Positions 33,001 to 42,000 of a stretch of DNA of 61,195 nt are shown piece after piece. Position 1 is the first letter of the stretch, and every line of letters starts with the position of its first letter. The position numbers were made by a program. The stretch lies in the NCBI GenBank assembly GCA_002010215.1, contig MTMY01000031.1, positions 62,001-123,195 of the forward strand, given 5' to 3'. Origin of the DNA: Archaeoglobus sp. JdFR-37. Lineage in GTDB: Archaea > Halobacteriota > Archaeoglobi > Archaeoglobales > Archaeoglobaceae.

Positions 33001-36000
33001 TTCGTACCGCAGCACGTTTTAGGCGTTCTTGTAGGAATGTGGAGGGGAATAACATACTTCACAAATCTGATGATAGGTGCTATTTTTATCGGATTTATAA
33101 ATGGTTTTGTGAATCCAACCAATTCGAGAAATTCAGAATTGAAGAAGGAATAAAACCTCGTCTGAATCAAATCCCATATCTTCCAACTTTTTCTTGGCTC
33201 TGCTGAATGCGTTGTAGTTATAATCTTCTCCATGGGCTTTTTTAATCAGAGATTCATACTCTAACTCTGTAAGATGCTTTTTCAGGAACTCTTTAAAGTT
33301 TCTCCTGTCTACGATTTCAACTTCCACTTTTTCTGTCCTTAGTCTTCCATTGAATACAATAGCATCGGTCTTCCAGCAGGATTTGCATTCTACTATAATC
33401 ATCCTTTCATCGCCAATTGTGGCGATTCCTCTCTGAATCATCTCTCCGCCACAGTTACAAAAGCCTCCAAATGTGGAGTCGTTGAGCTTTGTGAGCTTTA
33501 CCACTCTGTCATCTACAAATATCCTTGACAGAGGTTCAATCACTATTATCATAAGAACAATTATCACTTCCTCATATATATCTCTTTCGGTATAATTTCA
33601 ATTCACGTATTTAAATAATCAAAAGGAATATTTATTGTTACCCTTATAAATTAATATCAGTAGCATAAAAACAAGATATTCAAATGAGTGTAACTTTACT
33701 TACCTCGGGCAGTTTTTTGCGGAGGTGTTGCTCGACGAACATTGAAAGCGTAATCTGTGACATTGGGCAGCCAAAGCATGCTCCGAGTAGTCTGACTTTT
33801 ACCTCTCCACTACCCTCATCCACTTCGATGACTTCTATGCTCCCTCCATCTCTGGCAAGGGCTGGTTTTATATCCGATTCAATTACTTCTTCCACTTTTT
33901 CTTTAAGACTCATAAAGGAGAGGCTTTATGGCCAATATTTAAGCTTTCTTGTTGTGTGCAGAGAGAATAAAATCTTGGAGGCCTGAAGAAAAATATGCCC
34001 ACCGAAAGTAATAAATCAAGCACTTCTTAGTAAATATAAAATGAATTTGACAATTAGAATGACAAGAGCAACCGGGACAACTCCAAAAAACTATGCTATT
34101 CTGGGGTTACTGATTATTGTAGGTCTTGCATCAATAATATTGAGTGTGAGCGTCGGCTCATCTGACATCAATTTCTGGGATGTTGTCAAAACCATATTTG
34201 GAGATGAGAATGCTACACTGAAGAGCATTGTTGACTTCAGACTGCGCAGAACAATTTTGGCTGTTATTGTTGGAGCAGCACTTACCACCGCTGGCTGCGC
34301 GATGCAATCATTATTCCGAAATCCACTGGCTGACCCATACATTCTTGGAGTATCCAGCGGAGCAAGTGTAGGTGCAGCATTAGTCATCCTCCTCGGCTTT
34401 GCTTCATCTCTGAATATAATAACAGCAGCGTTTTTCTCTGCTATTATCACAGTTTATTTGGTTTATCAGCTCGGAAAAACATCTACGTACTCTTTGCTGC
34501 TTGCAGGGGTAGCTATGGCTACTTTTCTCTCTGGAATTACATCTTTGCTTATCTATCTAGCTGGGAAGGATATGCATCAAGTGGTTTTCTGGATAATGGG
34601 GGGCTTCTGGACTGCTAGCTGGTTGAAAGTTAAGATAGTCCTTCTTCCGGTGTTTGTAGGGATTGTCATAGTTGTTTATAATTCATGGAAGCTCAATGCC
34701 ATTTTGCTTGGGGAAGAGCACGCTGCAAGTGTGGGCGTGGACGTGAATAGGCTTAAAAGGATAATCATAACCTTTGCCGCCCTTCTCACAGCTTCAGCAG
34801 TCTCGGTTAGTGGGGTAATAGGATTTGTTGGTCTCATAATCCCTCATGCCATGAGGCTGGTGGTTGGTGAGGACAACCGCATACTTCTGCCTACAGCAAT
34901 TCTGTTCTCGGCAGCCTTCATGCCGTTGGTGGATGTAGTTGCTAGGACTGCTGTATCAGGGGAGCTTCCCGTGGGAATAATAACGGCATTGCTGGGTGCA
35001 CCATTCTTCATTTACCTCCTGAGGAGGGGGAAGACCATTGATGCTTCGGGTTGAAGGAGTGAGTGTCAGGCTGAAGAGCATGGAAATCTTGAAGGATGTT
35101 ACCTTTGAGCTCAGGGAAGGCGATCTTATCGCCTTACTGGGTCCCAACGGGAGTGGAAAGTCAACCATCCTTAGAACGTTATTTGGATTACTTAAGCCGG
35201 TAAATGGAGTGGTGTATCTGGATGGTAAGACTGTTCACGGCATGAAGATTCAGGATGTTGCAAAAATCCTCGGTTATTTGCCCCAAGAAAATTCGGAGAC
35301 GAATCTGAGGGTTATAGATGTTGTTCTGCTTGGAAGGACACCGTATGTGGGCTTAACTCCCTCGAACAAAGACCTGAAGATTGCCCTAGAAGCTCTTGAA
35401 CTTGTAGGATTAAAGGATTTTGAGAATCGCTACTTTTCAGAACTGAGCGGTGGAGAGAAGCAGAAGGTTATGCTTGCAAGGATTTTCTGCCAGCAGACGG
35501 ACTTCCTTCTGCTAGATGAGCCCACATCTCATCTGGACATCAGAAGCCAAGTTGAGGTGATGAACATCGTGAAGCGAATGGTGGATGAAGGAAAGGCGGC
35601 AATAATTGCAATACACGATATAAATCTAGCTGCATCTTTCTGCAATCGAATACTGATGGTCAAGAATGGCAGGATAGCTTATGCCGGTAAATCATCTGAA
35701 GTCATAAACCCTGAGAGCATAAGAGATGTGTTTGGAGTTGAAGTGGATGTGGTGCGATATAATGGTAGGGCTCTGGTAGTTCCCAAGGATGTGATGGGAT
35801 GAAATACTGGCTGGAGGAAGATACGCTCATCATCGAAGGCTCATTCAATGCCCTTAGCTCAGGTTTGCTTGGAGGCTGGAAGGATGTTGAACACATCTTC
35901 AACCATACAGTGGTGGAGGACTTTGACTATCTTGATCCGATAAAATACCTCAAAGGAGTGGCAGAAAGATTTGAGATGAAGCATTACTTCGGTTTGCTGA

Positions 36001-39000: not shown

Positions 39001-42000
39001 GCTGGATGTATCAGGTGAATGGAAACACTCCTCAAATCGGAGCTCACCAATATAACGTAAACGATGGAGACTTGGTTGTCTGGTACTTCTCCAGAAGTAT
39101 GAGTGATACGCCTGACACATCCCCCATGGTTTTGAAGATACGGGTCAAGTTTGAGACCAGCGAGAGTGCTCAGGCTGCAACTCAGCAGGTTGAGGAGGTT
39201 GCTGAAAAAGGTATATTGCTGAGCAAAGAAATAACAACGAGCCCCGGAAAGAAGGAGAGGATTAATCTTTCTGAAGATGTCATCAATGAGCTCTCCTTAC
39301 TCTCATTAGAAGTTAAGGCAGAAAAGGAGGCAGTAAAGATAGAACTCGCAAAAGCCAAAGAACCTGAGCCTGTCTATGGCAAGGTGCTGAAAGCCTTTGA
39401 TCTGGAAGTTAGTGGGGCGGAGGAGATTAAAATTGAGTTCAGAGTTAACAAGAGTGTTGATAAGGATAGCGTGGTGCTGATGAAATACAATGGACGCTGG
39501 ATTGAGCTGCCAACAGAGTTCGTGAGGGAGGACGAGAATTATTACTATTACACCTCAACTATTTCCAGCTTCAGCACGTTTGCAATAGTTGCCAAGTGGA
39601 AGGACTTTCCGCTGAATGTAACGGATGGCACCATACTCAAAGCCCTCGGCTGGCTTAAGACCATACAGAATGACGATGGTGGCTTCGCTAATCCGGGCGA
39701 GGAGAGCAGCATCTCCAAAACCTCATGGGCAATAATGGCTCTTGCTGCATCAAAGCAAGACCCGCACAGGTGGGTGAAGAACGGGAATTCCCCGCTTGAC
39801 TATCTGAGGAACAACCTCAACTCATCTCTCGGAAAGATGGGCACTGCTGACATAGCAAGAACAATTCTTGCACTCATTGCTGCTGATGAAAACCCAAGAA
39901 ACTTCAGCGGCGTTGATCTGGTGGCGATGCTGAAGGAGAAGGTTAAGGAGGATGGTCAGATTGGAGATTTCATCTACACCACCATATGGGGGATTATGGC
40001 TTTGACTGCAGTTGGCGAGAATACTTCTGAGTCGGTTGAGTGGCTCAAGGCTCAGCAGAACGAAGATGGCGGCTTTGCCTGGGCTGTTGGGGAGAAGAGC
40101 GATTACGACGATACTGCTGCAGCCATACAGGCTTTGATTGCTGCTGGAGAGCCCAGAGCTTCTGACGTAATCAGAAAAGCTTTAGAGTATCTGAAAACTG
40201 GCCAGAATGAAGATGGAGGCTTCAGATACTTCGGCAACTCATCATCCAACGCTGCCAGCGATGCTTGGATAATTCAAGCTCTGGTTGCTGCGGGAGAGAA
40301 TCCAAGAGATTGGAAGAAGGGTGATGTGAGCGTTGTGGATCACCTCTTAAGCTTGCAGACTGAAGAAGGCTATTTCAAATACACAGCAATTCAGATGTCC
40401 AATCCCGGATACATGACTGTGTCTGCCATCATGGCTCTGCTGGGGAAGCCGCACCCGATAAAGCCAGAATACCTTCAGGGAGAGGTGCAGCTGACCAATC
40501 TGACCATACCACCGTCAACCCCAGTAACTCCGACTCCTACACCTACTCCCAAACTAACTCCTACGCCAGCTTCTACTCCGATTTCGACACCGGTTTCCAC
40601 TCCAACTCCGGTGATAACAGAGGAGGCTGTAACTGAGACACCATCTGAGATACCTAAGGGAATTCCAGGATTTGAACTTGCTATTGCCGTGCTCGGACTT
40701 GCGGCAGCTATAAGGTGGAGGAGATGAGTAAGTCAGCACGCCCTTTTCTTTTTCTTTTATTTCTATCAATTTCGATATTCATTTCAGGTTGTGCTGGCAC
40801 CCTGCCTTCCACACTAGATTCCGGCGTTAAAGATGTTAAGGGCGTTGAAAGTATTAATAATAGCTCTGTTACTATCTCAGGAAGTGAGTTAAAGGTAACC
40901 CCTCCGGGTACCTTGGATACTCAGGATATCCCTTCAAACATCACAAATTCAAATCTAATTCGTGTGGTGGATGATTTCGGGTTTGAGGTGGTGATAAATA
41001 AAACGCCAAGGCGGATAGTCTCTCTTGCTCCCAGCAACACCGAGATACTCTTTGCTCTCGGTCTTGGAGGCAGAATCGTTGGAGTAACAGACTACTGCAA
41101 TTATCCACCTGAGGCTTTGAAAAAGCCAAAGGTTGGTGGTTTCTCCACAGTGAATATCGAGAAGGTACTGGCTCTTAATCCCGATCTGGTGGTTGCTGCT
41201 TATGGGAATGGAGCTGAAACTGTAGAAACCCTGAGGGGTTACGGCATAACTGTGATATCTTTGAATCCAAAAAATCTGACAGATGTCATGAGGAATATAG
41301 AGCTGCTGGGGAAAGTTACTGGAACTGAGGAGAATGCAACAAGGCTTGTTGAGATGATGGAGCAGAAAATCAGGGAAGTAGAGGAAATGATGGCAAACAG
41401 CAGCGAGAGGCCGAAAGTAGCCCACATACTCTGGCACGATCCAATATGGGTAAGCGGGAGCGGCACTTTCATTGATGAGTTGGTACGCATCGCTGGCGGA
41501 ACTAACGTTTTTGGCGACATGGAGGGCTGGAAAATTGTAAGCATCGAAGACCTCCTTGCTAGAAACCCTGATATAATCATCGTAAACAGCGGAACTGGGA
41601 TGGGGGGTGGAAAGAACATTCTCTACAACTGGGCCATAAGAGAGCTGAAGGATGTCAGGGCGGTTAAGGAGGGTAGGGTTTATGTAATTGATTCTGATAT
41701 TATCTCAAGACCATCGTACAGACTTGTTTATGCCTTGGAGGAGCTTGCAAAAATTATACACGAGCATAAAGTATTAACTTAAACACCTGTAACTACCAGC
41801 TCAAAAAAGTGGCAAGTCAGAAAATGAGCCTCTGGACAGGAATGACTAGGATGTCCCTTGCCCCCATTCGCTTCAGCTCTTCCACAACCTCGAACAGCCT
41901 GTCTTCGTGAACAACAACGTGAACGGCCACTATATCTTCTTCTGACTCTACCCTCATAACCGTTGGCCCCTTCAGTCCCGGAACGACCCTCTTCACGTCC

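Follow-up and report, generated by a model that had tools for sequence, protein, structure and literature searches.

Exported proteins with transcobalamin-like domains in a btuCD-cbiZ-btuF locus of Archaeoglobus: a predicted surface pair for corrinoid capture

In Archaeoglobus sp. JdFR-37, an archaeon of hot-spring type, two large genes for exported proteins lie between btuC-btuD-cbiZ and btuF, and we asked what these proteins might contribute to the importer beside them. The window analyzed was a stretch of 61,195 nucleotides (contig MTMY01000031.1, positions 62,001 to 123,195), and coordinates below count from its first nucleotide. A note from a genome-wide survey had read the proteins, g00602 (here A) and g00603 (here B), as catchers of corrinoids at the cell surface. 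An ORF check (34041-41782) recovered all six genes on the plus strand at the same positions and in the order btuC-btuD-cbiZ-A-B-btuF, and their domains were confirmed. Residue numbers given here exceed those of the survey by 6 for A and by 5 for B, because different starts were chosen.

Gene order, importer assignment and a common operator

The btuC-like permease (34041..35054, +; FecCD E 4e-90) is the genome's sole FecCD gene above cut-off, and its top NCBIfam model is BtuC NF007081 at 303 bits against a cut-off of 461. The btuD-like ABC ATPase (35038..35802, +; ABC_tran) is scored similarly by F420-0, heme and corrinoid ATPase models of NCBIfam, every one below cut-off. The third gene, cbiZ (35799..36359, +; PF01955 E 2e-44), encodes an adenosylcobinamide amidohydrolase of corrinoid salvage, according to a review (PMC5282855). 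The btuF-like gene (40724..41782, +; PF01497 E 6e-37) specifies the genome's only such binding protein, a lipoprotein as judged from a lipobox-like Cys; BtuF is its second-best NCBIfam model, below cut-off. Since BtuC, BtuD and BtuF all fall under the NCBIfam B12 equivalog cut-offs, the BtuFCD assignment is made because of cbiZ and the operator described below.

Longest ORFs extend over 36583-38439 (A), 38424-40727 (B) and 40715-41782 (btuF), and the likely start codons of A and B are ATG 36601 and ATG 38439. With a 241-nt gap after cbiZ, overlaps at stop and start codons among A, B and btuF, and their own TATA-like box (36548..36555, +, with a BRE-like purine run 5' of it), the three genes look like a transcription unit distinct from btuCD-cbiZ. 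By eye, the same promoter arrangement precedes A in relatives, even where cbiZ is directly upstream.

Directly 5' of the A promoter lies a candidate operator (36518..36544, unstranded), a palindrome TTKAY-N5-RTCAA with an extra half-site. The seed was chosen by eye from A promoters, and the matrix was trained on A promoters alone. In front of cbiM genes linked to cbi it scored at least 10 in 21 of 24 genomes, from 10 genera, and in front of nikM-like paralogues in 0 of 29. When this genome and its genus mate were left out of the training, the A operator scored 11.6 and ranked 7 among 1150 upstream regions of the genome; a corrinoid methyltransferase cluster ranked 2, and the cbiMNQO-cbi operon for cobalt uptake and cobalamin synthesis ranked 6. 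The upstream region of feoB scored -5.8, and the matrix also ranked ilvE and one unknown gene high. In genus g13, A and cbiM share a different palindrome with a divergently oriented gene for an ArsR-SLBB regulator. There was no Rfam match within 32-46 kb of the window, and the cobalamin riboswitch RF00174 was absent from the genome (94.5% complete). A, B and btuF thus appear, from these upstream sequences, to be switched together with genes of B12 import and synthesis, although the operator could respond to cobalt instead of corrinoid. The survey had objected that cbi genes make scavenging non-obligatory; the cbi operon and CbiD are indeed present, but because both operons share the operator, the cbi genes are no argument against scavenging.

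Linkage was counted in 57 loci with B, all of the same family; kin among them are not independent. A is directly upstream of B in 54 of the 55 loci with room. B is followed immediately by btuF in 46 of 53 loci, and 50 of these 53 have btuF within the locus; btuC occurs in 25/57 and cbiZ in 17/57. This arrangement is far beyond chance. In genus g4, cbiB, cobS, a cobY-like gene, cbiZ and cobT adjoin A, as do cbiB and cobS in g13. Occurrence of the A-B pair does not track loss of corrinoid synthesis: CbiD was found in 55 and DUF4430 in 60 of 92 genomes, and genus g17 carries CdhD (7/7), hence a corrinoid need, yet lacks DUF4430.

Could the pair instead capture another tetrapyrrole, such as heme or siroheme, or a metal chelate, with a general tetrapyrrole transporter behind it? 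The genome has no class III system besides this Btu/Fec-type importer, and its ATPase scores for heme models are near those for corrinoid models. Burroughs et al. (2007; PMC1796856) doubted B12 as the archaeal ligand, noting that B12 synthesis is frequent in archaea that carry such proteins and that what these archaea scavenge may be "a distinct metabolite". In Lactobacillus sakei, deletion of the whole operon lsa1836-1840 lowered heme uptake 5- to 8-fold at 5-40 µM (bioRxiv 10.1101/864751); this was the only related system found by literature search to have been experimentally tested. Like the A-B locus it combines an importer with exported proteins that resemble TC-alpha and TC-beta, but these are separate chains and the importer is of ECF type. 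The heme effect was seen just at micromolar heme, and the authors left cobalamin specificity open. Moreover, cbiZ, cob or CbiR-like genes recur alongside in separate lineages, and the operator is common to the cbi operon and not to feoB or nikM. Another ligand is therefore improbable.

Domains of proteins A and B

Protein A (36601..38439, +) begins with a hydrophobic stretch, has no membrane anchor and carries 27 N-glycosylation sequons. Its beta-propeller (36670..37761, +; PF13360 E 4e-58, PQQ_2 x3) had been proposed as an analogue of Bacteroides BtuG. BtuG2 (PMC6143338) is likewise a surface beta-propeller ahead of a B12 transporter, a likeness of role alone, as it is a seven-bladed lipoprotein working with BtuB. 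All 51 PDB sequence matches of the A propeller were to PQQ/BamB-type and archaeal cell-surface propellers, with BtuG2 absent from them, and the proposal is unsupported; the propeller may be a scaffold or a second binding site. A DUF4430/SLBB domain follows (37762..38115, +; PF14478 at residues 424-490, E 3.6e-7), variable (mean column identity 43%) and duplicated in some relatives. Its family profile matched 3u7z, haptocorrin and TC-beta weakly (E 0.011-1.2).

The C-terminal Ig-like domain of A (38116..38436, +) co-occurs with the N-terminal Ig-like domain of B (38511..38726, +; model Z 8-9 against Ig/FN3 domains), and the two are predicted to bind each other. The modeled complex scored 0.95 versus 0.12 for the best of three controls, with 100% of contacts agreeing between runs and a partner pLDDT of 94; the predicted contacts join A residues 547-561 and 590-594 to B residues 61-68. 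Of 157 solved pairs, 116 attained the mark for this score, as did 2 of 215 mismatched pairs; the mark applies roughly here, as our own alignments were used.

Protein B (38439..40727, +) also begins with a hydrophobic stretch and ends in a Pro/Thr stalk with a PGF-CTERM-like tail (40506..40724, +; PF18204, residues 747-764, 15.7 bits against a cut-off of 18.8), read as an anchor. Its SLBB/DUF4430 domain (38778..39152, +; residues 150-223, E 9e-16; haptocorrin profile match E 2e-4) had been called the counterpart of the carrier beta domain from PDB matches that we reproduced (B to 4kki, E 1.3e-4; B to 5no0, E 0.67; A to 5no0, E 0.46). The modeled domain bears this out: among 48,161 chains, ranks 1-4 went to haptocorrin-cobinamide (Z 11.3, rmsd 2.0, 90 aligned), intrinsic factor (10.8), TC-beta (10.7) and bovine TC (10.7), with 3u7z beside these four B12 carriers among the top matches. 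In the model, helix 122-133 is followed by strands 137-142 and 145-151, a beta-grasp with a hairpin inserted after the helix. W173 and F176, which precede C179-C184 and W194, align with the haptocorrin Trp and Tyr at the spacing of Trp359/Tyr362, from which the mapping was taken. The bulky haptocorrin-type pair of Trp and Tyr/Phe is kept in 40 of 53 B orthologues and the Cx4C motif in all 53.

Between this domain and the toroid lies a PGF-pre-PGF domain (39207..39599, +; TIGR04213 at residues 313-390, above cut-off), a spacer missing in three g3 genomes. Such domains, PQQ-type propellers and Ig domains are frequent in archaeal surface proteins; with the sequons of A and its variable SLBB domain, they might suggest a glycosylated scaffold, an S-layer pore or spacer that holds BtuF in position or provides a passage across the wall, BtuF being the sole corrinoid binder. 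That is quite improbable, since the ligand-facing aromatic residues of the B SLBB domain are retained, the toroid is conserved at 75% column identity versus about 25-43% per spacer block, and some relatives have expanded the SLBB domain to four or five copies, as binding sites would predict.

The toroid, its fusions to BtuF and the 2007 prediction

The alpha6/alpha6 toroid of B (39600..40469, +; model pLDDT 97) is its best-conserved domain. The survey had judged it closer to other toroids than to the transcobalamin alpha domain. Here squalene cyclases gave Z 25.8, ahead of intrinsic factor (21.3, rank 9), haptocorrin (19.7) and transcobalamin (19.5), and no B12 carrier was in the Foldseek top 50. 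PF01122 matches 43 of 53 family toroids, but weakly (best E 3.7e-5; B itself E 0.017, 14.5 bits against a curated cut-off of 25). Kinship with transcobalamin is weak.

Class II terpene cyclases are cytoplasmic or membrane-embedded, with access to prenyl substrates. Although cyclases are the best fold matches and DxDDT (D560, D562, D563, T564), which aligns to the drimenyl diphosphate synthase DxDD, is invariant in 53/53 family members, it is very improbable that the toroid is an extracellular enzyme (cyclase-like, or a hydrolase freeing or trimming cobamides) to which SLBB brings substrate, because among 209 toroid domains from wider relatives only 50 keep DxDD, the common pattern there being S-D-x-[DN]-x-T at a helix start, and an exported, anchored protein that is BtuF-fused in other archaea fits a binder better.

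Toroid and BtuF are fused in many methanogens. Among the top 120 homologues of the L009 protein, 104 carry the fusion. Outside the family it is present at 15 of 31 loci, and BtuF is fused, adjacent or within the locus in 23 of the 31. CbiR-like was the top NCBIfam match for 10 of 12 tested genes beside such fusions, all below cut-off. In P0089, propeller, SLBB and toroid form a single chain.

The architecture itself had been described. Burroughs et al. reported prokaryotic toroid and SLBB proteins in both domain orders, with propeller fusions and paired paralogues, and their supplement gives A. fulgidus AF1398 as SLBB+Ig+Ig+toroid, with two upstream genes marked unknown and a CbiO-like ATPase. 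The novelty that the survey claimed for a prokaryotic two-module carrier relative is thereby not supported. B resembles their proteins as one exported SLBB+Ig+toroid chain, and the locus resembles their set in its propeller fusion, two paralogues per operon and ArsR-SLBB regulators. The traits of their transcobalamin-like SLBB clade are found here: the inserted hairpin, signal peptide or anchor, and fusion to toroid, Ig or propeller with an operon paralogue. The clade's usual context, CbiO/CbiQ-like ECF genes in a host without B12 synthesis, is replaced by BtuFCD-cbiZ with CbiD and a cbi operon; that context is typical and not defining, and archaea are excepted in their account. Its accessible parts contain no toroid-BtuF fusion, no Ig-Ig clasp and no such operator.

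Relative to the animal carriers haptocorrin, transcobalamin and intrinsic factor (PF01122 + DUF4430), B shares the beta fold and the aromatic pair, and its chain likewise includes an alpha6/alpha6 toroid. In those carriers the corrinoid sits between the two domains. B differs in its reversed domain order and spacer, its toroid below the PF01122 cut-off, its anchoring to the cell and its proposed delivery to an ABC importer and not a receptor. The reversed order, raised by the survey as an objection, is real and carries less weight, being known from Bacillus, where the toroid is also C-terminal; relatives P0100, P0104, P0117 and L092 have the animal order, alpha before beta. In transcobalamin, the beta domain binds both cobalamin and cobinamide by itself, and separated alpha and beta halves come together only when ligand is present (PMC5599065); should the domains close solely around the ligand, their order would not matter. 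Halobacterium BtuFCD and archaeal CbiZ salvage, both cited in the review PMC5282855, correspond to the importer and the salvage enzyme here, and the accessible part of that review mentions no accessory surface capture proteins.

Proposed route and significance

Support for surface capture feeding BtuFCD and CbiZ grew with the DUF4430 fold, the cbi-operon operator and the toroid-BtuF fusions. From the genes, folds, linkage, fusions and common DNA signal, together with the modeled clasp, we infer that A and B quite likely form an anchored surface complex that captures corrinoids. B would be held on the cell surface through its C-terminus on the Pro/Thr stalk, and A, exported without an anchor, would attach to it by the Ig-Ig clasp. 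The SLBB domains, mainly that of B, would be first to bind cobamides or cobinamide, as the transcobalamin beta domain does; the toroid would probably close over the bound ring and keep it close to BtuF, to which the corrinoid may then pass for delivery to BtuCD. CbiZ would cleave it to cobyric acid, to be rebuilt by CbiB, CobY, CobS and CobT. A protein regulator, not a riboswitch, would switch A, B and btuF with cobalt uptake and cobalamin synthesis, presumably by repression.

The module was thus predicted in 2007; new are the operator link, the toroid-BtuF fusions and the evidence for the clasp. More tentatively, and with a little less than an even chance of being right, Halobacteriota anaerobes may use a modular surface relay in which SLBB arrays catch cobamides and a toroid closes over them and hands them straight to BtuF (fused to the toroid in Methanomicrobiales). 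An undescribed Ig-Ig clasp would join the chains, and an undescribed protein-operator regulon, in place of the B12 riboswitch, would control the relay along with cobalamin synthesis. The fusion suggests an unloading route from a transcobalamin-like binder to a transporter, and thermostable B12 binders and the small clasp pair could serve as reagents. Whether archaeal transcobalamin-like proteins bind B12 or another ligand, the question of 2007, is now directly testable in cultured carriers of homologues: Ferroglobus placidus, Archaeoglobus profundus, A. sulfaticallidus, Methanoculleus bourgensis, Methanofollis and Methanogenium. These archaea rely on corrinoids to fix carbon and to make methane, and a surface catcher of high affinity would therefore matter for the competition over cobamides in digesters, oil fields and vents; if the relay holds, producers of B12 would also compete for external cobamides.

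Locus, gene order and neighbors

The genome-wide survey's note had placed btuC, btuD, cbiZ, A (g00602), B (g00603) and btuF in one locus, and all six were confirmed in position. A begins with a hydrophobic stretch, followed by a propeller of PQQ type and a DUF4430 (SLBB) domain, and ends in a beta-rich domain; it has 27 sequons and no anchor. In B the signal peptide leads into an Ig-like domain, after which come DUF4430, PGF-pre-PGF, the helical toroid and a Pro/Thr stalk that ends in a PGF-CTERM-like tail. PGF-CTERM tails are processed by archaeosortase, and a cysteine of BtuF is presumably that of a lipobox. 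Stop/start codon overlaps join A, B and btuF, while between cbiZ and A there are 241 nt that hold a TATA box. Residue numbers follow the called ORFs; the likely start codons are ATG 36601 (A) and ATG 38439 (B). An 8-bp hairpin-like inverted repeat covers the A ribosome-binding site (window 36568-36595); it recurs in locus L038 and not in most relatives. The locus is followed 2 kb downstream by the gene of a NikR-like regulator and then that of an EamA transporter (43854-45155).

DUF4430 was found in 60 of the 92 genomes of the family (13/18 genera), and named relatives came from records of Geoglobus, Archaeoglobaceae and Archaeoglobales. Synteny was counted in the 60 stretches around DUF4430 matches. 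B was present in 57 of these. A lay directly upstream of B in 54 of 55 loci with room, the sole exception having a frameshifted B. The btuF gene directly followed B in 46/53 and was within the locus in 50/53, and btuC and cbiZ occurred in 25 and 17 of the 57 B loci, respectively. Neighbors include cbiB, cobS, a cobY-like gene, cbiZ and cobT in genus g4, and cbiB and cobS in genus g13. These differing gene orders reach the same cobalamin pathway, though the kin are not independent.

B is frameshifted at L021:7825-10280, and btuF is split in two pieces at L017:6876-7810 and L044:11921-12887; either could be sequencing error or decay. Histone-deacetylase-family genes recur in or near loci of separate lineages (L029, L030 and L032 of g4, where the gene sits between B and btuF; L082:14506-15492; L094:6476-7594). 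Beside btu/cob genes in several families, PF01902 diphthamide-synthase-like ATPases (L080:4096-4767, L101:2771-3451, L047) and asparagine-synthase-like genes (L078:15855-16838, L092:866-1783, L048) also recur.

Uptake of another tetrapyrrole by the pair was considered and is unlikely. The one tested relative found, from L. sakei, was linked to heme (bioRxiv 10.1101/864751), and Burroughs et al. (2007) suggest that archaea may scavenge another metabolite (PMC1796856). In the source genome, the single Btu/Fec-type binding protein and the single permease above cut-off are both in this locus. This genome also has a de novo cobalamin pathway (CbiD on contig C22). Co-loss of the pair with corrinoid use was sought across the 92 genomes, and the pattern was not clean: genus g17 (G065-G071, completeness 68-99%) gave no DUF4430, CbiD or CbiZ match, yet CdhD, a corrinoid-dependent family, was found in 7/7 and CobS in 5/7. 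In the open-licence literature searched, no archaeal protein of the A/B kind had been put to an experiment, and the candidate operator described below was not mentioned; nothing relevant was found on SCO2321, and the available part of a Dehalobacter starvation paper makes no mention of such surface proteins.

The beta domain and the predicted A-B clasp

Residues 30-243 of B were modelled (pLDDT 91.6) and compared with 48,161 chains. The top rank was haptocorrin-cobinamide (Z 11.3, rmsd 2.0, 90 aligned), followed at ranks 2-4 by intrinsic factor (10.8), transcobalamin beta (10.7) and bovine transcobalamin (10.7). When the same two-domain model was submitted to Foldseek, Ig matches dominated and transcobalamin beta appeared at rank 10. 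Haptocorrin was also the best PDB match of the family B SLBB profile (E 2e-4), and in that alignment W173, F176, C179, C184 and W194 of B stand opposite identical or like residues. W173 and F176 would correspond to haptocorrin Trp359 and Tyr362, a mapping based on spacing; a haptocorrin study ties these two residues to cobinamide binding (PMC4350170). The W-G-x-F/Y motif is kept in 40/53 B orthologues and Cx4C in 53/53. The SLBB of A is more variable than that of B, and its PDB matches are weak. In earlier work, transcobalamin beta by itself binds cobalamin and cobinamide, and separate transcobalamin halves come together only upon ligand (PMC5599065); another source has the beta domain binding ligand first (PMC11107200).

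How A stays on the cell was addressed through its C-terminal domain and the N-terminal Ig domain of B (the "clasp"). Among 97 loci, most from one family and six fetched twice by two routes, 67 had both domains, 26 had neither and 4 were discordant; three of these four stop at a contig edge and one has masked bases. Outside the family, 8 loci had both domains, 23 neither, and none was discordant. An anchor of their own terminates 10 of 14 propeller+SLBB proteins that have no clasp domain, this anchor being hydrophobic, and P0089, which holds propeller, SLBBs and toroid in one chain, has neither clasp domain. The predicted complex scored 0.95 (best control, 0.12), with partner pLDDT 94 and 100% of contacts shared by three runs. 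This mark was reached by 116/157 solved complexes and 2/215 mismatched pairs, a calibration that applies roughly, as our own alignments were used. The interface employs invariant residues (V547, S549, G550 and G560 of A; P64 of B). No close solved relative of the A domain was found in the PDB (best E 0.61), so the prediction does not obviously repeat a complex already solved, though both domains are Ig-like or beta-rich. The protein atlas gave no usable match for the C-terminal part of A. These predictions support binding of the A C-terminal domain to the B N-terminal domain. That A and B form only a scaffold is improbable.

The toroid and its fusions to BtuF

The toroid is the most conserved B domain (75% column identity; model pLDDT 97). 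Its structural matches included squalene-hopene cyclase (Z 25.8) and, at rank 9, intrinsic factor (21.3), with many glycosidases among the matches; haptocorrin and transcobalamin gave Z 19.7 and 19.5. No B12 carrier was in the Foldseek top 50. A catalytic role is very unlikely: although DxDDT is invariant in family toroids and recalls class II terpene cyclases, DxDD is kept in just 50 of 209 wider toroid domains (from top representatives of a wider search plus ten earlier proteins). PF01122 matches 43/53 family toroids weakly (source copy, E 0.017 over 166 residues), with scores far below those of cyclase families. Two bridges to the carriers failed. An 8-sequence profile of natural toroid-SLBB proteins reached transcobalamin only through the beta domain. 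The intrinsic-factor match (E 0.9), used to place toroid residues on alpha-domain B12 contacts, was a short stretch out of register, and therefore no residue-level claim is made. Judged from the model, the fold does not decide function; genomic context says more.

Of 301 genomes sampled from the phylum, 70 contained the toroid; 31 of the 70 belong to nine other families, and the loci of all 31 were fetched. It was fused to BtuF in 15 and directly followed by btuF in 5; btuF was elsewhere in the locus in 3, an ECF importer adjoined in 1, and 7 had no such neighbor. When the 120 best homologues of one fusion were examined, 104 carried both domains, and many bore the names Methanoculleus, Methanofollis, Methanogenium or Methanoplanus. 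Fusions with a C-terminal anchor (L009:9167-11137, + strand, and 15 loci among L081-L106) are widespread in Methanomicrobiales and annotated merely as iron or 'helical backbone metal' receptors. CbiR, a cobamide-remodelling enzyme according to bioRxiv 10.1101/2020.09.02.280537, was the best NCBIfam match for 10 of 12 tested ~240-residue neighbors of the fusions, all below cut-off (45-69 bits; cut-off 105). These AP-endonuclease-2 family genes (L081:6705-7427, L082:12580-13329, L086:2550-3290 and seven more) are candidate archaeal cobamide-remodelling enzymes standing in for CbiZ.

A candidate shared operator and the overall reading

No riboswitch was found with Rfam at the locus or in the source genome. 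An unseeded palindrome search near A was pulled to cbiZ coding sequence, and a seed was then picked by eye. TTKAY-N5-RTCAA (the candidate operator) adjoins the A promoter with at most one mismatch in 34/51 upstream regions (1.7 expected from shuffles), a count that is partly circular because the seed came from the same regions. For an independent test, a 27-bp matrix was built from 33 sites, leaving out the source genome and its genus mate. Among 1150 source-genome upstream regions, ranks 1-7 were a DUF2284 gene (C27:22677-23393, L158), an MtaA-like/corrinoid protein/RACo/MtrH methyltransferase cluster (C12:324-4982, L159), an HTH-PAS gene (C4:46432-47070, L160), ilvE, an unknown gene, the cbiMNQO-cbi operon and A. 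Only 11 regions scored at least 10; feoB scored -5.8, and btuC has no site (2.4). The genes at ranks 1-3 are possible members of the same regulon as A. In relatives, the region before cbiM of the cbi cluster reached 10 in 21/24 genomes and that before nikM-like paralogues in 0/29. Seven of the 21 positive genomes have no DUF4430 match and thus supplied no training site. Another 13 cbiM copies, which lie away from cbiD, were kept out of this count (9 reach 10). The three misses were two g18 genomes and G053 of g13.

In g13 a different palindrome, TTAACCA-N2-TGGTTAA, precedes A, cbiM and a lone SLBB gene. Divergent from A there is a gene for an ArsR-HTH fused to a weak DUF4430 (L047:7767-8276, - strand; also L046, L049), a candidate B12-sensing transcription factor. 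The signal read through the operator may be cobalt. Three regulators were considered and set aside: the HTH-PAS gene has its own high-scoring site but is present in just 10/92 genomes, DUF4443 was not found in the source genome, and the ArsR-SLBB gene has no full-length match there.

Surface corrinoid capture feeding BtuFCD-CbiZ, as the survey's note proposed, is the best explanation and probably correct. Its comparison of the propeller with BtuG found no support in the PDB sequence matches of A; BtuG2, a seven-bladed lipoprotein (PMC6143338), is not among them. By the alpha-domain test the system falls outside the animal carrier family. Burroughs et al. describe such SLBB/toroid fusions in both domain orders; their AF1398 entry reads SLBB+Ig+Ig+toroid, and the two genes upstream of it are marked unknown (PMC1796856). 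The A-B system belongs to this predicted prokaryotic SLBB-toroid class; its likeness to transcobalamin lies in the beta domain, where it is predicted to work like it.
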